Virus record (IMG/VR): IMGVR_UViG_3300046820_002883
From: an uncultured virus (IMG/VR IMGVR_UViG_3300046820_002883)
Lineage: Duplodnaviria > Heunggongvirae > Uroviricota > Caudoviricetes
Length of the DNA stretch: 20,000 nt
Direction: 5' to 3' (one strand)
A program made the position numbers and the translations under genes. Shown here piece by piece: positions 5,303 to 19,787 of the stretch. The stretch's first letter is position 1. Each line of letters begins with the position of its first letter. The notes beneath the pieces were generated by a model. The model saw only the letters and a list, made by a program, of their open reading frames with translations, did no database searches and was not told the origin of the DNA.

Positions 5303-8300
5303 TTACATTTTAAAATAAACAACATCCCCATCATATAACCCCAATTCAGTCATGAGTTGGTTTGACATACCCATACCGTATTCGGTTGAGTTTGGACCAA
5401 CGCTAACGGGACCATTTGCAACTATGGTTCCTAATGAACTATCCAATTGATAACTCGGGTTGAGTACTGTCGTTTTACCGTTTTTAGGATTTTTAAATGT
5501 AGTAACCGCAGTTCTAATTTTCGCCTCATTAACGATTCTAGATAGTTGGAAGGTTGATGTGTAGAATTTATATGTCGAATCTTTGATTGTTGACCATTTG
5601 ATTCCATTCGCTAAATTCATTGTAGTTTCATCATTAAGAGTGTATCCTGAACTACCCATTCTAACAACAACCGTTCTTAACCAAGTTTCTCCGTTATTTT
5701 CAACTTTTTGAATTAATCGTTTTTCGTTATATCCATTATATGGTATTCCATACTCGTTTATTCCAACATCATTTAATATGTTTTCTCCCGATATTTTTTT
5801 GTTTTGTCTATCAGTTACATATGAAACTTTGTTATAAATAATAACTTCATCTGTTGTTGTATCGGTAGATGCTCGTTGTTTCAATATCGCACGTGCTTTA
5901 GATGAAATCTTATCAAACAATATACGATAACTTGATAAGAATGAATCTCTTGGGTCAGGTAATGAAGTATATGGTAATCTCGTACCGGTGAATGTGGTAC
6001 TAATTGTATTTCCTTTAATATTATGATTTACCTCAGTAATCCAATATGAACCTCTGAACATTGGTATGTTTTTTAAATAGAAGAACATTGTTGGTTGAAT
6101 CATCACATTCCCCATACATGAAACCTCACATTTATATGATGCCTGTTTATAATAATCAAATAAACCAACGTCCACGTTATGTGCACCCGCTCCTGATTGT
6201 GACCTATTTAAGTCTTCCAAAACTTGGAATGATTCAGATGTGTTCTTAATTGAACTTTGGTCTAATTGGACTCCTTTGAAGATTCCTTGATTTTGGTCAC
6301 CGAAACTAACTTCAAATGCAACCACCTTGTTTGATTTACTTAAATCATTTGTGGTAAAACCCTGTAGTGATGTTACAACTAATGGGTTATTATTCACCGA
6401 ACCAAGATGAAAACTATCGTCCGTAAACTTATACGGTTTACTGTTTGACATATCGGGTCTTTTTGATGAATTACCAACCAATTGAATGATAACTTTTGGT
6501 GACGACTCTTGGTAATCGACCTCTAAGAAGGTGCCAAATAAATTTTTAGCAACATTTTTAGATGGTGTTATTTTAGATTTAGTACCAACATTAGTTCCAT
6601 AAAAGTTAACATATGCTGGTAACGCTCTCATATCAAGACCGGTACCTTGTATTAACATCGATATCGCAGTATATAAACTAACATTTGCGTTTCTCGGGTC
6701 AACCAATGGTAGAATCCTATCTAAATTCAAATAAAATTTGTCTCCAATGTCCCTGTTTGCTTTATCTAAGAATAAAAATTCTTCTAAAAGTAATCTTTGT
6801 CCTATTGAATTACCCGAAGTCCATTTGTCATTAAATGACTTGAAGGTATTGTACATCTCAAGTTTAAGGTCATTAGTGTTATAACCACCGTATTGACGTA
6901 TTCTATTTGACGTATTATTTTTTGGTATAGCATCGTATGCACTAAGTCTATTTAAAAGTTGTGTTAAGAAAATAGTTAGTCTGTTGTTTGCACCCCCGGC
7001 AACATCTTTAGATGCCGGTTTTCTGTTTATAATAGACGTATTTAAATAATCACTAAATGCGGTTGAGGTGTTGATTCCTCCATCAGTAATATAACCACCG
7101 TATATCTGTACCATTGGTCGATATCTGATAATATTATCTTCAGTTAGTTTGATGTCATTTACAACAAAGAAATTAAAATAATGGGTATCAATATCCTCAC
7201 CAATGTACAATCTAATTAATTTTTGATTTGCAACCGTATTGTCTAAAACATCGAATGGTTGAACCGCGTAATTAATTAATTGGTCCGCACCCTCCGAACT
7301 ATTCGCCATACCAAAAAGTATGTATGGGTCAATTTCTTTTGGGTTCGCCATTGAAAATTTTATTAGATTTTCATTTGATAATAACCCTCTTGTTATAAAC
7401 TCAGCGTTTTTAGTTTGTCTTTCGGTTAATGATGTTATTAATTCATCAATATTTGTTGTTTCGGTACTTTGTTTATTAATAACCGATAAACCTTTTAATA
7501 TATTTTGAAATTTAGAATAATTTATATTTTGAAATGGTTCGTATGGTAATTCAGTATTTTGAGTTTCGGTTGCAAATTCTAAAAATAAATCTTCAAACTG
7601 TTCTAAAATTTTAGGACTAAAAGTTGCAATTAAATCAATTACTTTTTTCTGATTAGTTTGTATTGAAAATGTATTTCCTGTACTTCTAATGTATTCAGAA
7701 TATGAAGGGAATGTTTTACCAGATAAATCACCGTTTATTGAATCTTGTGAAAACCAAATTGTTCTAAAGTTTTTTTGTTCTGTTGGAATAAAAAACTGAC
7801 CGTTTGGTATTGTTTTCATATTACCATTTGATGGTAATAAAGTAAAACTTTTATTATTTTGTTGTTCCAATGAACCATTTGTAAAATACAACTCATTATT
7901 AACAACAATATCCCAATTATTTAAATTATCTCGTTTACTGTTTCTATGTAGAATGTATCCATCACTAGTTTTTCCACTATAGTCTGATGTTGTTCCATCG
8001 TATTGTACAAACCCGTTTACAATCTGATTGTAAATTGACTGATAGAACGGAGAAACTCCCACGTTGTTATAGTTTGCATGGTTTACATTTACTGTTGAAC
8101 CTGTTGTACTTCCAACAATTGGAGATATATCAAACGTTAAATTTGAATTATTATCAAAAAATTCACCACCGTCTATTGGTTGAGTTAAATTACTTACGTT
8201 TATACATCCACCAAGAATGTCGGTACCGTCATTAAGATATGTTTTATATCTATGATAAATTGACCCCCATTTTAATAGTAAATGATATGGAACAAAATGT

Positions 8301-11179
8301 GTTGCGGAAACTTCTCTAAACAATGACGACATTAAAATAGATTTAGATGCAAATGGTGCTCCTTTACTATATGATATATGGTCATCCAAATCTAAAAATG
8401 GTAATGAATTTAATAAAAGATATGCAGAACCTTTATATTTCGCATATTTTGTTGAATTACTAAAATCACTTAATAGTTGATTATGGAAGTAAGGAGTATT
8501 CAACATATTAACGGTTGTTGTACTTGCGGGAATAAACGGCACAAAACCAACCGCAGGTATTGCGGGATTCGTAATCCTCAATTGTTGGTTAAACATATTT
8601 TCGGTATAGTCCGGTTTAACCCACGATTTTGAATTTACAAAAGAGGTGATAAAACCTTGAGAACTATCGACATTTAATAAACCGTCAAATTTTAAATTTT
8701 CTCTTTTAAATGTACTTTGACCTAAATAACCCAAATATGTACTTGAATTAAATGGGTAGATATTGTAACGATAGTCTTCCGCTTCGTAATTTATTAATTC
8801 AGTGTTTAATGCGGTTTGATTTAAATCACCTTGTTGTGGTGAATTAACATTATAACTCTCCAATTTAAATGGTTGGTCAAATGTGTTTATAATATAGTCC
8901 GTTGTTGGTAAGTGGTCTTTAAAGTAATTAAACTTATCGTATGGTGACAAACCCGGAAGGTATCCACCAAAACTATTTGATTGTCTTTGTTTTCCGTTTC
9001 CATCTAAAACAGGAACACCTTTTTCATCCGTTAATGGTACCGATTTTTGAAAACTAATTAAGTCGGTGATACTTCTTAATTTTTTTACAAAATCAATTAA
9101 ATCAATATCTTGATTAATAGTTTCTTTAATATTATTAAATTCCTCGTCCGCTAAAATATCTAAGAATTTTTGATTAAATGAATCTAATAATGTGATATAT
9201 TTTGCTCTCTCATATAATTCGTAAACAAATGATGAGTATGAGGTATCGTTATAGGGTAATGTACCGTTAATTACATCAATACCACATATATCCTCAATTT
9301 TAGTCTCATCGGCATCCGTTTCGAACAAGTATCTTGTATTGTTTCTCGTTGGTTCATTTTTAACGTTTGATTCATCCTTACCCGTAACAATAGTTATATA
9401 ATCTTCAATAAATGCAACCTCGGGCCACAATGTACTGTCATTTGATTTTAATTTATTAATAAGTTCAGGGTCTCCCGGATATGCTATAACATTCTGTTGT
9501 GTTCCTGCGGTTGGTTTTTTAATTTCAGGCCATGGGTAAATTGTTTTATCTCCCTTTGTTTCTTTTGATAAATTACCAATTAGTTTATATCTGTTATCCG
9601 CCGATTCAAATGCTTTATTGTGAATTTCTTTCATTAAACGAATGTATACTTCCGCATTTGCTAAAACCACAGCAAAAATATTTCTTATCGTTGGTTCGAA
9701 TCCAAGAAGTTCAGGTTTTTTAATAACCTCATTCATTAATCTTTCAACATCATCCTCAACCTTTTTTCTTTGTTCTTCGTATGATTTTCTTAATTCAAAT
9801 ATATCTTCAAATAATTTATCGACACCTACAATTACAAAACCGTTTGCGTCTTTTTGATAATAAGAATTAATGTCTTTTACACTTTTTAATGATATTTTTT
9901 GAAAATTACCTCTTGTTTTGTTTGTTAAATTTTGTGAAAATAAAACAGATTCAGATAGTCTTTTACTGTAAGCAGAAATGTTTACTTCTAAAGTACCTGA
10001 TTTAGTGTTACCTGTAATCCATTCTGTGGATGTCCTATCTTTATTCTTTGTTGGAGATAAATAAAACCAATTTTGTGTGGTTTCAGTACCATTTGCGGAT
10101 TTAATTGTTTTAACAAAAATCTCATCAGATAAGTTAATTTGGGACCAAGCTTTAATTGAACTTTCAAAGTTATCAATAAGTTCCTCAACTTCTTTAAGTC
10201 CTTGGAATATATCCATACTAACTTGACTAAAGACTTGTTCTTCTAATACTTTATCTAACGATTCAGCAACATACCCTAAATCTTTTAAGGTTTTAACTGG
10301 AAATCCTTTTGGGACTAATCCCTTTTTTTCGTATTGTTTGTAAATTGATTTTAAAATGGCGTAACCTCTTGACCCTCTTGTTACTTTTTTCTCGTAAACA
10401 TTTAAATTTGTGTTCAATGTAACCGGAGTATTATTTTCGGTCATGAACATATAGGGACAGTTGATTATTGATGAAAGAGAAATATCATTTAAGTAAGCAA
10501 ATGTTGAACCAACGAATGTTGTTGATACTTCAAAATTACCATTCGTTTCATTAAATTTTGAGGTGAATTTGGTCATATGTAAACGATATCTAATCGCCTT
10601 ACCATAATAACCTTTAACAGTTAAATAAAATATTGGCCACGGTAAATGAAAAAATGCGTTGTATGGTGAGTTTTCAGAATTATCAAAAAGAGTTTTACCT
10701 CTCACATCAATAAAACTAATATTAACTTGGGGTACAAAGTTTGCTCCCTTAACAGAAATGGTAATTGAATCAATACCAAATGTTTGTCCTGACGGGTCTT
10801 TAAATTGTGAATCCGTAAATGCGAAATCTTTACCGTTTCTGTAGTTTGATTCCTGACCTTCAATCGGTTTTGGTAAAAAGGTATCGGTCCAACTTGCATC
10901 GAAATTACCGTCACCCGTTTGATTTCTAAGGAAATTTAAATTACCCTTCGCAATACTAAGTAAAGTATTTCCCTGATTATTATCAGCAATAAGAGTTGTT
11001 CTCGGGACAATATCTGCCTCCAAGTTAGCATACATTACTAAGTTTTCCTGTTTAACCCCTCTTTCTTGTATTTCCCCACTAGAATTAATTACACTATTTG
11101 GGTCTACGTAAATAAGGTTATTTTGGTCTACTTTTACAAGTATATTCTCACTATTTGATAAATCGTTATTGCTGGCCAT
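5303..11179 (-). CDS. Giant baseplate hub-like protein (gp27/gpD/VgrG-like termini, 1958 aa)
   Basis: N-terminal beta pattern FGIDSITIS...VNISFIDVRG...FYLTVKGYYG and hub C-terminal signature CEVSCMGNVMIQPTMFFYL...GSYWITEVNHNI..NTISTTFTGTR. Sits after the LysM gene, as in contractile-tail gene order. Confidence 0.65.
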   Translation of the reverse strand: MASNNDLSNSENILVKVDQNNLIYVDPNSVINSSGEIQERGVKQENLVMYANLEADIVPRTTLIADNNQGNTLLSIAKGNLNFLRNQTGDGNFDASWTDTFLPKPIEGQESNYRNGKDFAFTDSQFKDPSGQTFGIDSITISVKGANFVPQVNISFIDVRGKTLFDNSENSPYNAFFHLPWPIFYLTVKGYYGKAIRYRLHMTKFTSKFNETNGNFEVSTTFVGSTFAYLNDISLSSIINCPYMFMTENNTPVTLNTNLNVYEKKVTRGSRGYAILKSIYKQYEKKGLVPKGFPVKTLKDLGYVAESLDKVLEEQVFSQVSMDIFQGLKEVEELIDNFESSIKAWSQINLSDEIFVKTIKSANGTETTQNWFYLSPTKNKDRTSTEWITGNTKSGTLEVNISAYSKRLSESVLFSQNLTNKTRGNFQKISLKSVKDINSYYQKDANGFVIVGVDKLFEDIFELRKSYEEQRKKVEDDVERLMNEVIKKPELLGFEPTIRNIFAVVLANAEVYIRLMKEIHNKAFESADNRYKLIGNLSKETKGDKTIYPWPEIKKPTAGTQQNVIAYPGDPELINKLKSNDSTLWPEVAFIEDYITIVTGKDESNVKNEPTRNNTRYLFETDADETKIEDICGIDVINGTLPYNDTSYSSFVYELYERAKYITLLDSFNQKFLDILADEEFNNIKETINQDIDLIDFVKKLRSITDLISFQKSVPLTDEKGVPVLDGNGKQRQSNSFGGYLPGLSPYDKFNYFKDHLPTTDYIINTFDQPFKLESYNVNSPQQGDLNQTALNTELINYEAEDYRYNIYPFNSSTYLGYLGQSTFKRENLKFDGLLNVDSSQGFITSFVNSKSWVKPDYTENMFNQQLRITNPAIPAVGFVPFIPASTTTVNMLNTPYFHNQLLSDFSNSTKYAKYKGSAYLLLNSLPFLDLDDHISYSKGAPFASKSILMSSLFREVSATHFVPYHLLLKWGSIYHRYKTYLNDGTDILGGCINVSNLTQPIDGGEFFDNNSNLTFDISPIVGSTTGSTVNVNHANYNNVGVSPFYQSIYNQIVNGFVQYDGTTSDYSGKTSDGYILHRNSKRDNLNNWDIVVNNELYFTNGSLEQQNNKSFTLLPSNGNMKTIPNGQFFIPTEQKNFRTIWFSQDSINGDLSGKTFPSYSEYIRSTGNTFSIQTNQKKVIDLIATFSPKILEQFEDLFLEFATETQNTELPYEPFQNINYSKFQNILKGLSVINKQSTETTNIDELITSLTERQTKNAEFITRGLLSNENLIKFSMANPKEIDPYILFGMANSSEGADQLINYAVQPFDVLDNTVANQKLIRLYIGEDIDTHYFNFFVVNDIKLTEDNIIRYRPMVQIYGGYITDGGINTSTAFSDYLNTSIINRKPASKDVAGGANNRLTIFLTQLLNRLSAYDAIPKNNTSNRIRQYGGYNTNDLKLEMYNTFKSFNDKWTSGNSIGQRLLLEEFLFLDKANRDIGDKFYLNLDRILPLVDPRNANVSLYTAISMLIQGTGLDMRALPAYVNFYGTNVGTKSKITPSKNVAKNLFGTFLEVDYQESSPKVIIQLVGNSSKRPDMSNSKPYKFTDDSFHLGSVNNNPLVVTSLQGFTTNDLSKSNKVVAFEVSFGDQNQGIFKGVQLDQSSIKNTSESFQVLEDLNRSQSGAGAHNVDVGLFDYYKQASYKCEVSCMGNVMIQPTMFFYLKNIPMFRGSYWITEVNHNIKGNTISTTFTGTRLPYTSLPDPRDSFLSSYRILFDKISSKARAILKQRASTDTTTDEVIIYNKVSYVTDRQNKKISGENILNDVGINEYGIPYNGYNEKRLIQKVENNGETWLRTVVVRMGSSGYTLNDETTMNLANGIKWSTIKDSTYKFYTSTFQLSRIVNEAKIRTAVTTFKNPKNGKTTVLNPSYQLDSSLGTIVANGPVSVGPNSTEYGMGMSNQLMTELGLYDGDVVYFKM

Positions 11180-11492
11180 AATATAGGTTATACAATTCTA
11201 CATTTCTTTTGTAATCTTGTAAAGAGGTAGTCAAAGGAAATGGTACCCTTAATATAAAATTATCAGGTATATTAAACTCTAAACTACCGGCCAATGGATT
11301 TGCTTGTAATATTAACCAACCAAAAACAGGGGAACCATAATATTGTTCAGATAGTTTATCTAATCTATCTTTTCCTCTTTTAAAATATGCGTACTTGTCG
11401 GTAGATTTAATTGGTATTTCAATACCCGGAACGATTCTAAAACTAGAATCTTCTATAAAAAATTGATACCTGTCAAAATATTGTCTACTCAT
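11166..11492 (-). CDS. LysM-fold baseplate wedge protein (T4 gp53 / P2 gpX-like)
   Basis: KRGKDRLDKLSEQYYGSPVFGWLILQANP...IPDNFILRVP is the LysM/tail-X pattern. TAATG stop-start overlap with the upstream gene. Confidence 0.8.
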   Translation of the reverse strand: MSRQYFDRYQFFIEDSSFRIVPGIEIPIKSTDKYAYFKRGKDRLDKLSEQYYGSPVFGWLILQANPLAGSLEFNIPDNFILRVPFPLTTSLQDYKRNVELYNLYYGQQ

Positions 11493-14400
11493 TACTTCTT
11501 AACAACTGGTGTTCTGTAAAAATTTAATTTATCTGTAACCGATGTATTATCTGAATTAACTTTATTTAGTTCATCAGTTATTGCTGCATTGGTTTCTTCT
11601 ATTGGTGCGTCTTTACCAAATTTAATATCTTTATCACTTTTTCTTGATTTGAATTTAGTGAATTTAAAATTCTTTTTTTCTGGTTTTATAACAAAATCAT
11701 TTACTCTTTTAGTTAACTTTTTAGTTAAACTACTTGGGTATAAAACGGTATCGGTAAAACTATCCATCATCGCTTTTACTATTGAATCTTCTGCAAAGAA
11801 TTCTTTACTGAACGATTGGAATTGAGTGTCGTCTATTACAGGGAAATTAAAATTAATTCCACTTGTAAGACTTTCATACATTTTTGTGGTATTGGTTTCA
11901 ATATAATCAACGTTAGAACTATATTCCTTGTAAATCATGTCAGCAGTAAAACCTGTTAAGGTTGACGTGATTGCCTTTTGGTCTTTTATTTGACCATCTT
12001 TACCATTTTTAACAATGAAATTAACTTTATCAAGACTCTTAATTAATTCGTTTCTTGCGTTATCAATTTCTTTGATTGAATCGTTTGATGTTATACTATT
12101 AACTTTATCTTCAATTGTTTTAATAAAAAATGGTTTTAATATTTTCTCATTTGTGTCAATTAACTTAGAACCCGTCATTTCTTTGTTGAACTTCAACATA
12201 TTCACCAAATATGTGTCTGATGATGAATTAATAAAATCAACCAAAGCTGTTTTCAGTGCAATTGTTAATTTTTCAAGTTCATTACCTTGCTTAGATATTC
12301 CATGTAGTGTTAACGTTTTACCCGGTGTTGGTGATGTTACATTGTAAACATCATATTTGTTTATCTCCAAATAAGTGGGTGACAACATCATTGTGGTAAC
12401 ATCTTTACCGTATTTGGTGTAGATAGTGTTATATTTTGCTTCAAAAGATTTAAAGTAACTTTCTGTAGTTTTAAAAACATCTTCAACTATAGTTTTATAA
12501 CTTAAATCTTGTTCAACAGGAGTACCAATGTACACGGAGTCTTGAATCTTGTTAGTGTTTTTATTTGGGTCTTCGGTTGGTTTTTTTGGTGTTCTTTCCA
12601 TAAGTTTTTGTAAAAACTCTTTAGTGAACACATCCGCTTTCTTTCCACCAATTGTTTCATTTGTTGCAATTGACCTTTCATCGTACATTTCAGTATTAGC
12701 GAAGAAGTTTGAAGACAATGCGTTTTGTAATCTCTCTACCGGTTTCGATAAACCTTGTCCACCAATAAATGAAATTTGCATTGTTACGTTTGCAATCATT
12801 GGTTGTACACCAATACCTTCGGGATTTAAATCCCAAATACCTTCATCATAGGTAATGTTAACATCTCTAATAATAATTTTTGAGTGATAAAAATCTCCGA
12901 TTCTTAATACACAAACCGGAGGTGGACCAAATGACGTGTTTCTCGCATTTAAATCAGTATCATCCGCAATACCTTTAATTGGAATGGTGTCTCCCGGTCT
13001 AATACATTGTAATAGGAAGGTTAAACGAGCGTTTAGTCCCTCAGGTGTCATTGAGTGAAAACCTGGATGAAAATACTTTAATTTTTCTTTTAAAGATTTA
13101 AATTGAACGGGAGAATCCTCCTCTAACTTTTTGAAATAAAAACATTCAGAAAGTGTTCTCATGATAATTCTTTTTAACGGGTCTATTTGAACCTTTCTAG
13201 TTGGTGGATTAATTGTAATCTTACCATCAGGGTCAATAGTTGTGGGTATTTTTGGTGTAGGTGTAGGTGCTGGTGGTTCTTGTGTTGTTTTTGAATAATC
13301 TAATTCAAAAGTTGTTTGTCTACAATATGCAGCAATCGGGGTGTAAATTTTTAAATCTACATCTGATTGGAATTCTTTTCCAACACAATCTTTATCGGGA
13401 CCTGAACCTGTAAAGTTTTCACCCCAGTTGTTTGACCAAATAATAACTTTACCTTCATAATCCCATCCTAAGTCTTTAAAACTATATTCCTTAATGATTG
13501 TAATTGGTTGTCCTTTAGTAATCTGAACAACATCCGTTGGTGATAAATTACTAACCGTAGGTACAATCTTATCAATCCATTTTACTGTGGGTGATGTTGC
13601 TGTCGGATTTTTAATTTTATCAAAAATATCTTGAATCACCGAATAACTTCTTCTTAATGACAAACTTTCATTGTAAAACTCAGTTGCAACCGAAGAACAT
13701 GAAGATTGTATTTTAATTTTAATATCTTGTGCGGTTTTTCCCGAAAGACTAATTTTTAGTTTTTCTAATTCACTATTATATGTTGTATAATTTTTTTCTA
13801 AATCAGTAAAATATGTTTGCGTTTTACCTGTTTGACCTTCAATTGCCGCACTATCAATGGTAACATCGGCAGAACCAAAAATATAACCAATCTCTTTTTT
13901 GATTTGTTCGGTTTTTGGTTTGGTCGATAAAGTTACTAAAGCATCTTTTAATTTATTTACATATAAATTAGTTTTACCTGAATATTCTGAATATAAATCA
14001 GTGTATTTTCTTGGTGTTTTTGTCTCATTTTTTGGGTCGGGAATATCATTTTCATATTTTAATTCCGCCTTAACCGTTGGTTCCGCTTTTAAATTGTTTC
14101 CCGAATTACCATTATTTTGTCCGGCATTTGGGTCGGGAATAACCGCTGGTGGTATGTTATATTTGTAATTTTGAATAACATCAGGGTCTTTTCCTTTTTC
14201 TAAATAAGATTGAATTAATTTAATATCATCCGCTCCTAAGTTCGCAAATCTTAAAATTAATCCGTAAAAATCTAATTCCTCACAACCGGCGAAGAACGCG
14301 TTGATGTAATTGTCCGATTCTTCATCGGTCATTCCTTTAAAGTATTCTCTAACTAAAAGGTTTAAAATACTTGGGTGGTCAACAATTACTTTAAATGATA

Positions 14401-16315
14401 ATTGTCCACTTCTTGATGTATCTTGGTATGTATAAATTGGTTCGGGTCTACCTAAGAAGGTATTGTCTTGCCATCTTGCTGAGTTAGTTTCACTAATTTT
14501 TAAATCGTATGGAGGGAACCACATAACACGACCACCATTATTTCCTCTTTCACAATATGGTAAATCATTATAAGTGAAACCCGGAGTATTCGATGTTCTC
14601 CAAGCTAAGTTCTCAATTGAGAACATATATTTTTTTGCATAGAATCCGTCCCCTTGTTCAAATATGTTTGTTGAATTTTTCGCCCCAAATGAGTTTTTAC
14701 CTGTTGGGTCATAACTACCGCTTGACATAGGTGCGTAGTTAATATTCCATGGTCTACTGTCTCCACCCATAACACTATCATCAAACTTACGAATATTCGC
14801 AGTTCTTTTCATCGTGTCTGAATAGTTCATGTAAGACCTATCTTTAGTCCATACTCTACAGAATTCAGCACCGGTTTCTCCGCCGTATGCGTCAACATAT
14901 TTAATTGCGGAACCTCTCGATAACATCGAATCTCCTTCTCTGAAAATTCTACTTGTTTGGTCTATCACGTTACCAACGTGGGTACGAGATGAAAGACCAT
15001 CTTTTGGCATCGAGTCTAAGAGCTCTTGTGTTCTACCTAAAATAGAATCGTCTCTGAAACCATATTTTGTTGAAAGTGATTGACTGTATTGGTTGGCTTC
15101 GCTTTGATATTCTTTGTTGTGTAAACCAAGTTTATTTCGTGAGTTAGAACTAATCCATGTTAGTTTACCACCGATTTGTCCACCTTCACCAATATTTTTC
15201 TTTCTTTCAAATAACGACGCTTGTACTTCATCAAACATCAAACTTAAATAGTAACTACTTTTTACCATGTTACCATTAAAATCTGACATTGTATATTTTA
15301 CATCTGTAGACCTATCATCACCAATGTATGCAACACCTTTTGGTGCTTCTACACCTAATACATTTTTAACACCTTGGGCAACGTTGTTTACAAAATTAAA
15401 TAACTTAGATGATTGTTGAGACCTCGCGGTTGTTGTGTAGTTTGGTGCATAAGTTGAATATGATAGTTGGTCAAATAAAATTTGTTTTTGACCCGCCCCC
15501 ATATATTCAATCATTAAATCTGAAGGTTTTCTACCAAGTTTTGGTCTTCTTTGGATTCCAATTAAAGAACCTAACACTCCACTTATATCTTGTAGAATTG
15601 CACCTGCTTGTGTATTTGCGGCAGGTCTTGGGTTTTGTATTGGATTTCTTGGGTTTGATAAGTAATCACCGGGAATCTCACTAAATGGAAATTCAACACC
15701 AGCAACTGTTTGTAAGAAATCAACACCTTTACCTAATAAAGTTTTTGCTACTGTAATTTTATAATTTTTTTCAATTAAAGGTTCTCTACCTGTAACTAAA
15801 TTAATTGCGGTCGCGGTGTTACCACCCAACGCATCAAATAATCTAACTCGACCTAATGTATTCGACGTTAAATTTTGTTCAACTCTCGCGAAAACAGGAC
15901 CTAATCTATTTTCTCTAATGTTTTTGGTTGCAAATTGCATCAACTTTGAATCCGTATCAAAGTTTTGTCCGGTCATTATACTAACTAAATTGGTCTCACT
16001 TTTAACAAATGAATCAATATAACCCGCAAATAAAATACCACTATATAATGTTTGTAACGCAGGTAAAGATGTGTCTGTGTATTCCTCTATTGTACTGTTT
16101 GGTGGTAAGTATAAATTATTACCAGCAGAATTACCGTAATAATTCGCGAAATTTGTTTTTACGTCACCCGGGTCAATGTTTGGAAAATTACTTAAATTTT
16201 GTAAAACATAGTTTGAACTCGTAAAGGTTTGAGGACCATTAGGTCTATTCAGGGTACGAGCAATCATCATGTCCCTGAATCCTTTAGTACTATTAAAATC
16301 TAAATAACTTGGCAT
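11492..16315 (-). CDS. Large baseplate / tail-tube-initiator-like protein (gp48/gp54-like domain) with inserted OmpA-like domain (1607 aa)
   Basis: Tube-initiator-like motifs ISETNSARWQ..FLGRPEPIYTYQDTSRSGQLSF and PPVCVLRIGDFY....IRDVNITYD...W...PMIANVTMQISFI. OmpA-like YNESLSLRRSYSV lies between them. Position is directly after the tape measure gene. Confidence 0.65.
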   Translation of the reverse strand: MPSYLDFNSTKGFRDMMIARTLNRPNGPQTFTSSNYVLQNLSNFPNIDPGDVKTNFANYYGNSAGNNLYLPPNSTIEEYTDTSLPALQTLYSGILFAGYIDSFVKSETNLVSIMTGQNFDTDSKLMQFATKNIRENRLGPVFARVEQNLTSNTLGRVRLFDALGGNTATAINLVTGREPLIEKNYKITVAKTLLGKGVDFLQTVAGVEFPFSEIPGDYLSNPRNPIQNPRPAANTQAGAILQDISGVLGSLIGIQRRPKLGRKPSDLMIEYMGAGQKQILFDQLSYSTYAPNYTTTARSQQSSKLFNFVNNVAQGVKNVLGVEAPKGVAYIGDDRSTDVKYTMSDFNGNMVKSSYYLSLMFDEVQASLFERKKNIGEGGQIGGKLTWISSNSRNKLGLHNKEYQSEANQYSQSLSTKYGFRDDSILGRTQELLDSMPKDGLSSRTHVGNVIDQTSRIFREGDSMLSRGSAIKYVDAYGGETGAEFCRVWTKDRSYMNYSDTMKRTANIRKFDDSVMGGDSRPWNINYAPMSSGSYDPTGKNSFGAKNSTNIFEQGDGFYAKKYMFSIENLAWRTSNTPGFTYNDLPYCERGNNGGRVMWFPPYDLKISETNSARWQDNTFLGRPEPIYTYQDTSRSGQLSFKVIVDHPSILNLLVREYFKGMTDEESDNYINAFFAGCEELDFYGLILRFANLGADDIKLIQSYLEKGKDPDVIQNYKYNIPPAVIPDPNAGQNNGNSGNNLKAEPTVKAELKYENDIPDPKNETKTPRKYTDLYSEYSGKTNLYVNKLKDALVTLSTKPKTEQIKKEIGYIFGSADVTIDSAAIEGQTGKTQTYFTDLEKNYTTYNSELEKLKISLSGKTAQDIKIKIQSSCSSVATEFYNESLSLRRSYSVIQDIFDKIKNPTATSPTVKWIDKIVPTVSNLSPTDVVQITKGQPITIIKEYSFKDLGWDYEGKVIIWSNNWGENFTGSGPDKDCVGKEFQSDVDLKIYTPIAAYCRQTTFELDYSKTTQEPPAPTPTPKIPTTIDPDGKITINPPTRKVQIDPLKRIIMRTLSECFYFKKLEEDSPVQFKSLKEKLKYFHPGFHSMTPEGLNARLTFLLQCIRPGDTIPIKGIADDTDLNARNTSFGPPPVCVLRIGDFYHSKIIIRDVNITYDEGIWDLNPEGIGVQPMIANVTMQISFIGGQGLSKPVERLQNALSSNFFANTEMYDERSIATNETIGGKKADVFTKEFLQKLMERTPKKPTEDPNKNTNKIQDSVYIGTPVEQDLSYKTIVEDVFKTTESYFKSFEAKYNTIYTKYGKDVTTMMLSPTYLEINKYDVYNVTSPTPGKTLTLHGISKQGNELEKLTIALKTALVDFINSSSDTYLVNMLKFNKEMTGSKLIDTNEKILKPFFIKTIEDKVNSITSNDSIKEIDNARNELIKSLDKVNFIVKNGKDGQIKDQKAITSTLTGFTADMIYKEYSSNVDYIETNTTKMYESLTSGINFNFPVIDDTQFQSFSKEFFAEDSIVKAMMDSFTDTVLYPSSLTKKLTKRVNDFVIKPEKKNFKFTKFKSRKSDKDIKFGKDAPIEETNAAITDELNKVNSDNTSVTDKLNFYRTPVVKK

Positions 16316-16352: not shown

Positions 16353-18299
16353 TTATTTAGTTGTTGGGACAGATAGATTTGTATCGGACGCGTAGTCTCT
16401 TGGGTTAGTTTTCGCCATTTGTTCATCCCACGTTCTTCTTGTGTAATCAGTAACGACATCACTACCCGTAAGTGAATGTTTGTGTAAAACAGTAGTAGTT
16501 GTTCCGTTGTTTGTTCCACTATTATTAGTACCAGTATTTTGTGTTGTATTATCGACTTTAACTCCTGTAAGTGCAACTCCTTTTGCAATTAATTTACTAG
16601 CCTCTTCACCGGCACTTTTAACAAATTCAGCAACCACATTAGTTTCTTGTCCTTTAACCGCAGCGGTTGATGTTTCTTTTAATTTATCTCCAGCCTTTTC
16701 TTCCAATAATTTATCTACCGCATCTAAACCACCTCTAAAACCTTTAGCCGCGTTTACTTTCGCGAGTGTTAACATTGCAGATAAATCTTTTTGAATATTT
16801 TGTGTTACGGTATATTGGTCTCTTGCAATTTCCTCGGGAGACATTTTTTCAAACGCCTCTTGATTTTTCAACAACACATTTTTTTGTGTTTCGGTAAGTT
16901 CGTCTAATGCAATTTGTTGCGCTCCACCAAATTCTTTTGATATTGATGAAACGTCGACAACCATCTTACCACCTTCCATCCTTGAGATGTTGGTTAAAAA
17001 TTCTTTTTCTTTGTCACTTAATGCAAATCCTTTAGACATTAATTCAGCCGAAGCACTTGTTCTTTCTTGTGACTTAATCGCTGTGTTGGTCAAGTCTTCC
17101 ATACTCATACCCAACTGCTTACTTAATTCTTTTGCCTTTCTTAGGTTTGCACCTGTAATTTCAAATTTACCCAATTCTTGGTTGTATGTTGCTAATGAAC
17201 CCGCAACACCAATCATCGCATCTTGTAATCCACCCGCATCGTTAGTTGCCATGTACATCAACTTCAATGGGTCATTAAAGTCACCAATGGTACCACCAAT
17301 TGCCTGTAATTCGGCAGATAAAGCGATTGCTTTATCGGGGTCAAATAAATCATCAGCCAATCTAAAAACAGAATCCATGTTCATTCTAAATTCGATAGAC
17401 TTTTGTGTCATTTTAGTTAAACCTTCAACACCGTCTTTAAACCCATATTGATTCATTTTATTTAAATTCGAACTAAGACTCTCAACAACTTTTCTTGCAT
17501 TTAAACCTAATTCTAATGATGATTTACCCGCTTTATCAATTTGTGTAATCGCAGCCTGTGCTCCTGTACCAATTTTTTCAAAACTATCTAAAGCCGAGCC
17601 AAGTGAACGTAAATCACCATAAAACGCTCTCGCTGTTTTTTGTGCATCAACCAATGTGTCCTTATTGAAGGCCACCATTCTACCTGTGTTTTTAGATAAA
17701 TCTACCGCAAAATTTGATAATTCTTCAAAACTAAACGCCATTTGGGTTGCCGCAGGTGCAGCTTCTAAAATGTTGTCTCTAAAACCTTTTGACAATTCCC
17801 CTGTCATTCCCAATTCGGAATTGACTTTATTTCTTAATTGAATCTCTTTACCTAATTGGTCATTGATTTGGTCACCTACAGTCATTAGTAAACTACCTAA
17901 TAAGTTTTTCATGACACTAACAGCACCTTCCCCTTTCTTAACTGACTGTTCAATACTATCGTACACTGAACTAAAATCAATTGCTTCTGATTGTGGAAGA
18001 CTTGACATACTATACCCCATATTTTGTTGTAAAATACTTTGGTTTGTTAACGTCCCTTTAAAAATATCACTAGCACCTTGGGTAACACTTTTCGCGGTTT
18101 CTTTAAATCCACTACCCTTGTCATCATTTCCCGTAGTTGGAGCAACTGAACTATAACTCACGTAAGCATTATCAATTTCTCGTTTTACGTTAGAATCATT
18201 AAGACTAACCCTATTATCGTTAGCCACCATAGTTGAAAACTCTTGGTACCTTTTAGATTGAGCTAAACTTTTTGCCTGATTAGATATGTTAAGTGCCAT
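16353..18299 (-). CDS. Tail tape measure protein (648 aa)
   Basis: Ala/Gly/Leu/Met/Gln-rich helical composition; located after the tube and chaperone genes and before the baseplate genes. Confidence 0.75.
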   Translation of the reverse strand: MALNISNQAKSLAQSKRYQEFSTMVANDNRVSLNDSNVKREIDNAYVSYSSVAPTTGNDDKGSGFKETAKSVTQGASDIFKGTLTNQSILQQNMGYSMSSLPQSEAIDFSSVYDSIEQSVKKGEGAVSVMKNLLGSLLMTVGDQINDQLGKEIQLRNKVNSELGMTGELSKGFRDNILEAAPAATQMAFSFEELSNFAVDLSKNTGRMVAFNKDTLVDAQKTARAFYGDLRSLGSALDSFEKIGTGAQAAITQIDKAGKSSLELGLNARKVVESLSSNLNKMNQYGFKDGVEGLTKMTQKSIEFRMNMDSVFRLADDLFDPDKAIALSAELQAIGGTIGDFNDPLKLMYMATNDAGGLQDAMIGVAGSLATYNQELGKFEITGANLRKAKELSKQLGMSMEDLTNTAIKSQERTSASAELMSKGFALSDKEKEFLTNISRMEGGKMVVDVSSISKEFGGAQQIALDELTETQKNVLLKNQEAFEKMSPEEIARDQYTVTQNIQKDLSAMLTLAKVNAAKGFRGGLDAVDKLLEEKAGDKLKETSTAAVKGQETNVVAEFVKSAGEEASKLIAKGVALTGVKVDNTTQNTGTNNSGTNNGTTTTVLHKHSLTGSDVVTDYTRRTWDEQMAKTNPRDYASDTNLSVPTTK

Positions 18300-18302
18300 A
18301 CT

Positions 18303-18310
18303 TATAAATA
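18303..18310 (-). promoter_or_regulatory. TATTTATA late-promoter candidate
   Basis: Exact motif only 3 nt upstream of the tape measure ATG, directly abutting the TAG of the upstream small ORF. Confidence 0.55.
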
Positions 18311-18466
18311 CTATTTAGTAGTGTTTTCTAATTCAATAATGTAGTTTACATAGTATCTTCTCAAATAAATGGGCATAGTAAGGATATCACCATAAGCGAA
18401 TCCCCTTTTGACTAAATATAAAATTTCGTCTAATTGATTTTTCTTATAGTCCGTAGAAAGGGCGAA
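18311..18466 (-). CDS. Unannotated 51-codon reading frame: C-terminal 'T'-like segment of the tail assembly chaperone, probably reached by frameshift
   Basis: +1 frame relative to 18444..19193: FALSTDYKKNQLDEILYLVKRGFAYGDILTMPIYLRRYYVNYIIELENTTK-TAG. Fills the gap to the tape measure gene; no ATG until codon 31; the 'GF.Y.DI..MP...R' pattern resembles chaperone T segments. Confidence 0.75.
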   Translation of the reverse strand, partial: FALSTDYKKNQLDEILYLVKRGFAYGDILTMPIYLRRYYVNYIIELENTTK

Positions 18467-19193
18467 AAAACTCCACCCCAAAACCAACTTCTACATTGAC
18501 TTCTTCTCCTGACGGGGCGATTACTTTTCTTGTTAAATTAATTCCGGGTTTGTTTTCTTTGACGAATTTTCTAAAATCTTGAGAATCTTTGATTGGTAAC
18601 TTTTCAATGAAATTTCTAATATTCATTGGGTCTTTATTACCTGAAACACTTTTAATCATCATCTCTAACTGTTTGGTTACCACGGGAGCAACACCAATTC
18701 CATTCCAACTTTTTTCAATCTCATCGATTTCTTTTAGTTGTTTTGGTGTCAAAAATTTAAATGTTATATCAACATTTGATTTATCCATGTGATATTGGAA
18801 TTCATTATTAACATCGGGTGTTAAATTAAACTCTTTAAATTGTAATTCACTTAAATCAACTGTTGAGGTAAATTCTTTTTGGCTTTTTGGGTCCGTTAAA
18901 TAAAATGTGTATTCAGCACCAAATGCGGTATTTCTTAAAAAGATTAAGATTGCTTGTTTATCTTCTTCGGTTATTTCTTCCGGTGTGATTTCTCTATCTA
19001 AAACTTTTCTTCTCAATAATTCATCAACAACCCCATTGGTTGCAATTAAATTTTGTGCAGATAAAATGTTTTCATCAACCGCGGTAAGGTAAGCAACCCT
19101 AACCGATTTCTTTTTACTTTGATAATGTATACCTCTTGATGGTAATTCCACGACATCGTACGCAATCGTGGGGTCAATTCTGTATTCTTCCAT
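18444..19193 (-). CDS. T4 gp26-like baseplate/tail assembly chaperone (249 aa)
   Basis: VELPSRG..Y...VAYLTAVDENIL...DKQAILIFLRNTAFGAEY...VDLSEL and terminal EFF motifs; lies between the tube and tape measure genes. Confidence 0.75.
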   Translation of the reverse strand: MEEYRIDPTIAYDVVELPSRGIHYQSKKKSVRVAYLTAVDENILSAQNLIATNGVVDELLRRKVLDREITPEEITEEDKQAILIFLRNTAFGAEYTFYLTDPKSQKEFTSTVDLSELQFKEFNLTPDVNNEFQYHMDKSNVDITFKFLTPKQLKEIDEIEKSWNGIGVAPVVTKQLEMMIKSVSGNKDPMNIRNFIEKLPIKDSQDFRKFVKENKPGINLTRKVIAPSGEEVNVEVGFGVEFFRPFYGL

Positions 19194-19298: not shown

Positions 19299-19787
19299 TT
19301 AGTAAACTTGGATACATCTATCCATACGTAAAGACGCGGTGATATTTGCGATGTCATCTCTTGAATAATCCAATTCACCAAAGTTCAAATCTGTGATAAA
19401 TGTACCTTGAAGAATCCATTTTTCAACCACAACTCCCGTTGGGTCTAACATTTCTAATTCAATATCTTTCTTATAACCTGCCGCATAACCCATACGACCT
19501 GTTACAGATTCCGCATGTAAACGGAACCATTCCATTAACGCTTGGGATGCTGAAGGACCTATTGGGTCTTTGAAGGTTACTCTAAGTTCATTCCATTCAA
19601 AACGACCAGCAACATAAGTTGAAGTGTTAATAAAAGGGATTGCAACTGAGTTAATTTTTGCACTTGGTCTAGCTGCGGATGCAACATACCATTCGTTGAT
19701 ACCCAATGAAGAAGGGAATCTAACGATGAATCGGTTGACTCTTTTCGGTTCGTAAGGAACCGGCATTTTCATTAATAAATCTGCCAT
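19299..19787 (-). CDS. Tail tube protein (T4 gp19-like)
   Basis: YEPKRVNRF, ARPS, YVAGRFEWNELRVTFKDP, EWF, YKKDIELEMLDPTGVVVEKWILQGTF..LNFGELDY: the contractile tail tube signature. Confidence 0.92.
   Translation of the reverse strand: MADLLMKMPVPYEPKRVNRFIVRFPSSLGINEWYVASAARPSAKINSVAIPFINTSTYVAGRFEWNELRVTFKDPIGPSASQALMEWFRLHAESVTGRMGYAAGYKKDIELEMLDPTGVVVEKWILQGTFITDLNFGELDYSRDDIANITASLRMDRCIQVY

Follow-up and report, generated by a model that had tools for sequence, protein, structure and literature searches.

Does a gene of the T4 gp26 family give rise to one protein or to two? The question is raised by a 20,000-nucleotide stretch of an uncultured caudoviricete (IMG/VR IMGVR_UViG_3300046820_002883), analysed here as a whole and referred to as the window (G+C 33%). 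On its minus strand, on which all features described below lie, a 249-aa gp26-like open reading frame (ORF; 18444–19193; the proposed 'G' form) ends in GAG TTT TTT CGC CCT TTC TAC GGA CTA TAA, with the stop codon at 18446–18444, while the +1 frame reads TTC GCC CTT TCT and so on and stays open to a TAG at 18313–18311. An earlier note, made from the letters of the window, had proposed that ribosomes shift forward by one nucleotide at this point and thus produce a pair of tail assembly chaperones, and all of its sequence details (the 3′ end of the gene, the open +1 frame, the sole ATG of that frame and two TTG codons) are correct on the minus strand. We consider it highly probable that a programmed +1 ribosomal frameshift takes place near the end of this gene, which has the tail tube gene on one side and the likely tape measure gene on the other. 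Judged from sequence comparison, this appears to be a genuine G/GT-type recoding site, deeply conserved and as yet unannotated.

The frame relation and the candidate slip site across relatives

The candidate shift site, U_UUU_UUC, occupies 18464–18470 (TTTTTT at 18470–18465, C at 18464), and the A-site codon of the 0 frame would be CGC (Arg, 18462–18464). The +1-frame extension, the proposed 'T'-like part, is defined by its open frame and by homology and covers 18311–18463, that is, 50 codons after the slip followed by TAG (ALSTDYKKNQLDEILYLVKRGFAYGDILTMPIYLRRYYVNYIIELENTTK); it runs from ALSTDYKK to ELENTTK, and its sole Met is residue 30 (codon 31 if TTC is counted). In the dual-coding overlap (18444–18463), the 0 frame reads RPFYGL* and the +1 frame ALSTDYK, and the nucleotides are near-invariant. 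If TTTC is decoded in a single step, the product has 293 aa (…GFGVEFFALSTDYKK…); an in-frame TTTC occurs once in the gp26-like gene.

The frame relation is fixed in relatives. Two IMG/VR scans provided 160 loci of 30–98% identity, some contigs being fetched twice, and of the 164 loci in the full set, 159 have the gp26-like ORF complete. When these were searched with a profile of 50 distinct extensions, the best match lay in the +1 frame at all 159 and at none in frame 0 or frame +2, five of these matches being weak (E 0.027–0.25; L134, L139, L144, L156 and L164). In GenBank phages, tblastn retrieved seven records with a gp26-like protein, the extension alone led to Microcystis phage Mel-JY01, and the HSE3 extension used as query found further phages (SP-15 and LIS04). 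The +1 relation holds in all six GenBank phages examined (Mel-JY01, immuto, LR756508, HSE3, LIS04 and SP-15), as does the gene order sheath, tube, gp26-like gene, extension and long tail gene; hosts of the GenBank relatives are Flavobacterium, Microcystis, Bacillus and Listeria. The sites read AAC TTT TTT TGG CCT in Mel-JY01, AGC TTT CTT TGG CCT in immuto and AAC TTT CTA TTC CCT in the uncultured phage LR756508, whose proteins are 27–33% identical to that of the window, and GAG TTC TTT CGT CCC in HSE3, GAA TTT TTT CAC GCC in SP-15 and GAG TTT TTT AGT ACC in LIS04. Homology of the extension starts right after the Phe-Phe pair (FF-ALSTDY, FF-GLSNEY, FL-GLTPEY, F.-SLPSDY, FF-VPSLDS).

The nucleotides of the site are conserved as well. 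TTTTTTCG is invariant in the window's clade, and across 84 distinct sequences of that clade five of the six T positions show zero entropy; the exception, with 0.09 bit, is the third, the wobble position of the first Phe codon (TTC in L111). The third position of the second Phe codon shows 0.00 bit, compared with 0.95–1.06 bit at the third positions of four other upstream Phe codons. Among 105 distinct 90-nt junctions, 99 were classed as UUU_C or YUU_U. The former class comprises 72 junctions of type TTY TTT C.., with CGC (43), CGT (23), CGA (3), CGG (2) or CTC (1) as the A-site codon and never AGR; the latter comprises 27 (TTT TTT TGG 21, TTT CTT TGG 4 and TTT TTT TAT 2, i.e. 23 UUU_U and four CUU_U). 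The six unclassed junctions are L003, which also reads as UUU_C, and five distant loci. An in-frame UUU followed by a pyrimidine (UUU_UUU_C in the window) hence sits where the homology changes frame at most junctions, and because of this conservation in relatives the slip site is more than a chance run. The Arg of the site is always CGN in the window's clade, although AGA accounts for 150 of the 214 Arg codons of the window.

Before the site, variation is concentrated at the third codon positions of frame 0, and past it at those of frame +1; the +1-frame [DE]Y of the overlap is retained in distant relatives. In many relatives, a 0-frame GTA GAR creates a +1-frame TAG 9 nt ahead of the first extension codon. 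This stop bounds the site on its 5′ side and confines entry to the +1 frame to 26 nt, within which TTT TTT C is the sole slippery stretch.

That gene callers would miss such a fusion had also been expected in the earlier note, and a joined coding sequence (CDS) is annotated in none of the five annotated phages examined (one record each, of seven annotated records found); PP395634 (L001), MW353176 (L002), MF418016 (L165), KT624200 (L169) and OQ999172 (L168) hold no joined CDS. The records of Mel-JY01, immuto, HSE3 and SP-15 list the extension as a hypothetical protein of its own that begins at a TTG or at an internal ATG, and in LIS04 the stretch is unannotated. Since the extension is called as a separate small ORF or not at all, gene callers and databases miss the fusion.

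The length of the extension varies. In an immuto-type clade (L002, L136, L143, L147, L150, L158 and L162), it comprises 80–120 aa and has a conserved tail, P-x-Y-[ST]-T-K-A-[SLR]-[RK]-K, which may be a second binding motif. This C-terminal tail is absent from the 50-aa extension of the window.

The proposed fused product and forward slip, and their alternatives

A natural counterpart of the proposed fusion exists. Searching 1.84 billion representatives with the 293-aa reading returned 1683 matches at E ≤ 0.001. Of the best 150 listed, 132 do not extend beyond query residue 243, and those of full length stop exactly there, a few residues short of their own C-terminus; another 12 continue for 1–4 residues, four rows with two matched stretches have no readable match end, and two, P0243 and P0126, cross the junction. 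P0243 (304 aa, 31% identity) has the extension in frame, with the uninterrupted frame confirmed by contig L166, and spans the junction without a gap in a 35-row alignment. P0126 is a fragment in which the two frames meet eight codons earlier, an indel or a faulty assembly being the probable cause. The P0243 locus was not found among the viral contigs searched. With the fusion, the match to phrog_150 grows from profile positions 17–233 to 17–264 and from 38.4 to 41.1 bits. On its own, the extension is modelled by AlphaFold 2 (AF2) as a three-helix unit with a predicted local distance difference test score (pLDDT) of 93.7, and it has no family match in Pfam or PHROG. A repeat relationship between the extension and body residues ~173–215 was rejected (hhalign probability 0.26%), and a complex prediction of the tube protein with the extension gave no answer (score 0.00), which weighs neither way. 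L166 is a metagenome contig of 1943 bp, in which two small ORFs (120 and 126 aa), and no long tail gene, come after the in-frame fusion gene; as in T4, the gene of this lineage may no longer lie between the tube and tape measure genes.

We propose that the slip is most likely a +1 ribosomal movement of tRNA-Phe at UUU_UUU_C. Most ribosomes would read GAG UUU UUU CGC CCU … UAA, with the 249-aa protein as the product. In some ribosomes, the peptidyl-tRNA-Phe on the second UUU (18467–18465) would re-pair one base forward on UUC (18466–18464) with the A site waiting for CGC, and reading would resume in the +1 frame at GCC to yield the 293-aa fusion, …GFGVEFF-ALSTDYKK…, with the junction peptide GVEFFALSTDYK and the predicted three-helix extension of 50 aa. 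The part common to both proteins would be what binds the tape measure protein, and the role of the extension would be to bring in a further component of the tail. The ribosomal nature of the slippage, the preference for +1 over −2, its efficiency and all binding partners are what we infer beyond the sequence comparisons described above.

The same frame could be reached in other ways, and the variant sites are most informative on this point. In a −2 frameshift, the peptidyl-tRNA-Phe would step back two bases, from UUU to UUU, and add one extra Phe (…EFFFALS…, GVEFFFALSTDYK), as in the −2 case of phage Mu cited in the earlier note; U6 or U7 runs on which this could happen are found at 98 of the 105 distinct junctions (71 TTT TTT C.., 21 TTT TTT TGG, 2 TTT TTT TAT and others). 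In LIS04 (UUU UUU AGU) the second Phe codon has no pyrimidine after it, so a slip there must be at the first UUU or be −2; a +1 slip at the first UUU and a −2 slip at the second account for this site equally well. Forward re-pairing (UUU to UUC or CUU to UUU) is nevertheless possible at TTC TTT CGT (HSE3), TTC TTT CGC (L111), TTT CTA TTC (L003) and TTT CTT TGG (four junctions), whereas cognate −2 re-pairing is barred at TTC TTT CGN and would need wobble or mismatch at TTT CTT and TTT CTA, and yet all of these loci keep the frame relation. Together with the gap-free alignment of the in-frame P0243 to the +1 product, these sites favour +1 over −2, as the earlier note had done, and make the backward slip unlikely. 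Slippage of RNA polymerase, which would drop one U or add two in the T run, is a still weaker candidate. T6 or T7 runs are present at most junctions, and passages of Atkins et al. (2016; PMC5009743) describe transcriptional slippage on A or T runs in bacteria; against this, the runs are short (6–7), lineages with T3 only (HSE3, L111, the immuto type TTT CTT T and L003) retain the arrangement, and the base past the run is constrained (C of CGN or T of TGG), for which slippage has no need. The contigs of sequencing runs show no insertion or deletion at the T run, although contigs drop rare variants and are no proof of transcription. Two RNA-library runs cover small parts of the region (X19 18456–18815 in pieces; X20 18279–18443 and others).

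A second group of explanations does without any fusion. The extension might be a separate small gene, translated from an upstream TTG or by coupling to the gp26-like stop, and the window does have TTG codons 18 and 24 nt upstream in the +1 frame, just as GenBank lists small ORFs in the four phages named above. These TTGs count little as starts since they are by-products of 0-frame GTT/ATT-GGN (Val/Ile-Gly) codons and are lost with synonymous changes. The open +1 frame contains no ATG, GTG or TTG at 26 of the 159 loci (23 of the 105 distinct junctions), an ATG is available in only 12 of the 105, and the annotated starts vary by phage and remove conserved residues. The extension is conserved from within the overlap onward, ahead of the 0-frame stop, and an in-frame fusion occurs in nature; we therefore regard a separate gene as improbable, to about the same degree as polymerase slippage. 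A conserved independent start of the small ORF, which the earlier note had named as a refutation, is not seen, and all comparative tests suggested there turned out favourably. Least of all do we credit the idea that the +1 ORF is open by chance or is what remains of a decayed gene, with the 249-aa protein as the only product. An AT-rich genome makes stop-free stretches less likely, not more, the 50-aa sequence is conserved as protein in relatives of 30–98% identity with third-position variation in its own frame, and its confidently modelled fold speaks for a protein; the conservation data already contradict this explanation.

A number of observations weigh against a +1 slip of the kind outlined here, or against parts of it. 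In the earlier note, CGC was described as apparently uncommon, with the slip taking place while the A site waits on it. The first part stands: CGC is the rarest sense codon that occurs in the 12 long ORFs of the window (one of 6144 codons, namely the slip-site codon; CGG 0), compared with 150 AGA and 29 CGT among the Arg codons, and a single CGC fits a waiting A site. The part of a hungry codon in the slip is hypothetical, as relatives have CGT, CGA, CGG, TGG, TAT and CTA besides CGC at this position, and with CGN codons commoner than CGC among them (CGT in HSE3, for example) the rare-codon argument is not general. In the window, a GGAG lies 3 nt 5′ of the shift codon, but relatives vary at the G of GTN and at the last G of GAG, and this Shine–Dalgarno (SD)-like GGAG is not conserved. 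GGGGUGGAG just 5′ of the site is predicted to pair with UCGCCCU in a small hairpin (18459–18479); RNAalifold gives eight pairs and no compensatory changes, and the single-sequence fold has a z of −1.76. No conserved stimulator was found around the site in relatives. At five distant loci (L134, L135, L139, L144 and L164), the site could not be placed and the extension matches are weak (E 0.005–0.25), and LIS04 departs from the common pattern as described. For the UUU_UGG class, the Yersinia yopN case is a caution, the proposed UUU-UGG +1 site being mutable without loss of the hybrid protein according to part of PMC3789692.

Contigs from public sequencing runs gave a further observation on this region. 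At 88% likeness, the depth of public contigs in run X2 rises about six-fold, and does so nowhere but over the slip region; here diverged relatives contribute short pieces that match just 18440–18487, an island of nucleotide conservation.

The gp26 family, its predicted fold and its neighbours

The 249-aa protein belongs to the gp26 family. It matches PF12322 (T4_baseplate) over residues 25–235 with E 1.6e-8 and 35 bits (cut-off 24.5) and the baseplate hub family phrog_150 at 1.8e-9, which bears out the assignment made in the earlier note. Scores against PF12322 are 81 bits for HSE3, 100 bits for SP-15 and 48.8 bits for P0243, and the immuto and Mel-JY01 proteins have no Pfam match at E ≤ 0.01. 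Many gp26-like representatives (P0134–P0137, P0142 and others) are 340–585 aa long, with 100–290 extra N-terminal residues and often an insertion in the middle, seen as two matched stretches.

The tail chaperone reading gains support from the predicted fold. The AF2 model of the 249-aa protein (pLDDT 89.3, predicted template modelling score 0.83; residues 246–249 disordered) was compared with 48,161 PDB chains by an exhaustive aligner, and the top three chains were 3FGX (Z 5.5, 89 aligned), 3KLU (5.4, 83) and 2OB9 (4.9, 92). According to part of PMC9603447, all three are phage tail assembly chaperones, which have similar Z values among themselves, and 2OB9 is the HK97 tail assembly chaperone (gp13). 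The matches cover model residues ~62–224, with residues ~125–224 matching the three solved chaperones. In BFVD, 63 matches at E ≤ 0.001 include predicted models of many myoviruses named 'baseplate hub subunit' or 'baseplate hub assembly protein'. Since the Z values are modest, the fold matches are supportive, not decisive.

The relationship to T4 gp26 can be followed to the slip site itself. In the Pfam alignments, HSE3 (residues 10–240) and SP-15 (1–241) reach the end of the model (219) with their Phe-Phe at profile positions 217–218, and T4 gp26 (1–206 on 1–219) has F204-F205 at the same positions. Although it shares the family and, through HSE3 and SP-15, the Phe-Phe of the slip site, T4 gp26 ends in KEFFELL*, its +1 frame closes after seven codons, and gene 25 follows; this context, next to gene 25 and apart from the tape measure gene 29, is not shared by the window or the six GenBank relatives. 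T4 gp26 also keeps the CxxC…CxxC that is absent from the window protein. Two CxxC pairs, likely a zinc ribbon, are found in T4 gp26 (L084), P0243, LR756508 (L003) and HSE3 (L165); their positions align to TDPKSQ and APSGEE of the window protein, and the cysteines are lost in the window's clade.

Gene order around the gp26-like gene on the minus strand is tail tube gene, 249-aa ORF, short +1-frame ORF and 648-aa ORF. The T4 gp19-like tail tube gene (19299–19787) lies directly upstream, here and in related loci; it matches phrog_4542 (tail tube) with E 2e-25 and reaches 25.6 bits against PF06841, under the cut-off of 28.2. Downstream, the 648-aa ORF (16353–18299) is a putative tape measure gene by position and length. 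That the extension ends just before the tape measure gene had been claimed from the outset; its stop indeed lies 11 nt before this ORF, whose putative identity comes from position, length and a weak ESM Atlas lead to PF10145 (rank 24, score 0.92). The genes at this position in immuto, HSE3 and LIS04 are annotated as tape measure, and Pfam and PHROG searches with the 648-aa ORF gave no match.

The spacer between the extension stop and the next ATG (18300–18310) measures 11–14 nt in loci of type A and has a conserved TATTTAT, as in TAG TATTTATAAGT ATG, which we take to be the reverse complement of the T4 late-promoter core. Beyond the putative tape measure gene follow two very long ORFs, 11492–16315 (1607 aa) and 5303–11179 (1958 aa), with no Pfam or PHROG match at E ≤ 0.01, and between them a 108-aa ORF with a weak match to a baseplate wedge PHROG. 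Other T4-type genes in the window are gp32-like, UvsX/RecA-like and 5′–3′ exonuclease genes.

What this family does in T4 itself is a wider question. A passage of Leiman et al. (2010; PMC3004832) lists gp26 as a hub assembly chaperone, and one in Atkins et al. (2016; PMC5009743) states that G-T frameshifting is a conserved trait of the long-tailed phages 'except T4'. Read most simply, the T4 lineage would have its chaperone in the gp26 family, and the extension would have been lost in T4. We lean somewhat towards the broader proposal that the T4 gp26 family is the missing tail assembly chaperone, the counterpart of gpG/gpGT, of T4-type and related large myoviruses, with an ancestral +1 shift at a Phe-Phe UUU_Y site that would still be used by phages of Firmicutes, Bacteroidota, Cyanobacteria and abundant freshwater bacteria, T4 having kept the 'G' body after the gene moved away from the tape measure gene. 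If true, this would be among the most widespread bacterial +1 recoding sites that need no stop codon. Several results count against the chaperone and T4 parts of this proposal. The Z values lie below the tool's caution line of 8, Foldseek against PDB gave no match with E ≤ 0.001, and the family profile against PDB sequences gave nothing better than E 0.17. T4 gp26 as a single sequence reaches an hhalign probability of 1.1% against the family profile, so that the T4 link rests on Pfam and PHROGs, and a BLASTP comparison between the putative tape measure protein (648 aa) and that of immuto gave no significant similarity.

The proposed recoding at this locus in comparison with known systems

By position, by predicted fold and by a conserved, putatively two-product design, the locus ties T4 gp26 to the G/GT system, and the unclear role of gp26 in hub and tail assembly becomes directly testable. 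The roughly 100 distinct junctions, within a family of 1683 representatives (E ≤ 0.001), amount to a series, provided by nature, in which +1 sites of the UUU_Y and CUU_U types fall on sense codons; such a series is of use in studies of forward shifting by bacterial ribosomes where no stop codon is involved. In the literature covered (open-access papers and bioRxiv), a description of a gp26 frameshift was not found among the papers listed, up to 20 of up to 151 matches.

The proposed slip has counterparts outside phage tails. Influenza A virus reportedly makes PA-X by a +1 frameshift at UCC_UUU_CGU, where, as here, a P-site UUU is followed by the C of CGN, tRNA-Phe moves from UUU to UUC and no stimulator is evident; that system differs in its eukaryotic ribosomes and RNA virus, and its argument from CGU rarity is specific to that host. 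In Escherichia coli, UUU-pyrimidine sites are said to be prone to +1 shifts, a finding attributed to Schwartz and Curran in 1997, and the re-pairing types UUU_Y and CUU_U, the latter known from prfB (CUU_UGA_C), are the ones seen in the 105 junctions (72 UUU_C, 27 YUU_U). In prfB, an SD-like element lies 3 nt before the shift codon, the spacing of GGAG in the window; unlike prfB, the site described here has a sense codon in the A site, an SD-like element that is not conserved and no autoregulatory logic.

Among phages, forward shifts have been described for tail proteins. According to passages of Atkins et al. (2016; PMC5009743), the Listeria phages PSA, A118 and A500 shift +1 at CCC_UGA, and the tail chaperone of the haloarchaeal myovirus HSTV-2 is 'very likely +1'. 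These cases share +1 recoding that leads to C-terminally extended tail proteins, and HSTV-2 is a precedent for a +1 tail chaperone; they differ in their CCC shift codons, in the other genes concerned (PSA tail shaft and capsid) and in belonging to unrelated families. A further parallel is offered by lambda gpG/gpGT, together with the frameshift that long-tailed phages have conserved (Levin, 1993; Xu, Hendrix and Duda, 2004, as cited in passages of PMC5009743). In both systems the gene is located between the tube gene and the tape measure gene (putative in the window), and the second ORF has no start of its own; the body of the window protein is predicted to have a chaperone-like fold. In contrast to lambda, the shift proposed here is +1 instead of −1, at UUU_Y and not at a site of the G_GGA_AAG type, and the 'G' part, a member of the T4 gp26 family, has 243 aa, roughly double the length in lambda, owing to an additional N-terminal half. 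By position, fold and two-product logic, the pair of proteins predicted from this locus may thus be seen as the counterpart of lambda gpG/gpGT.

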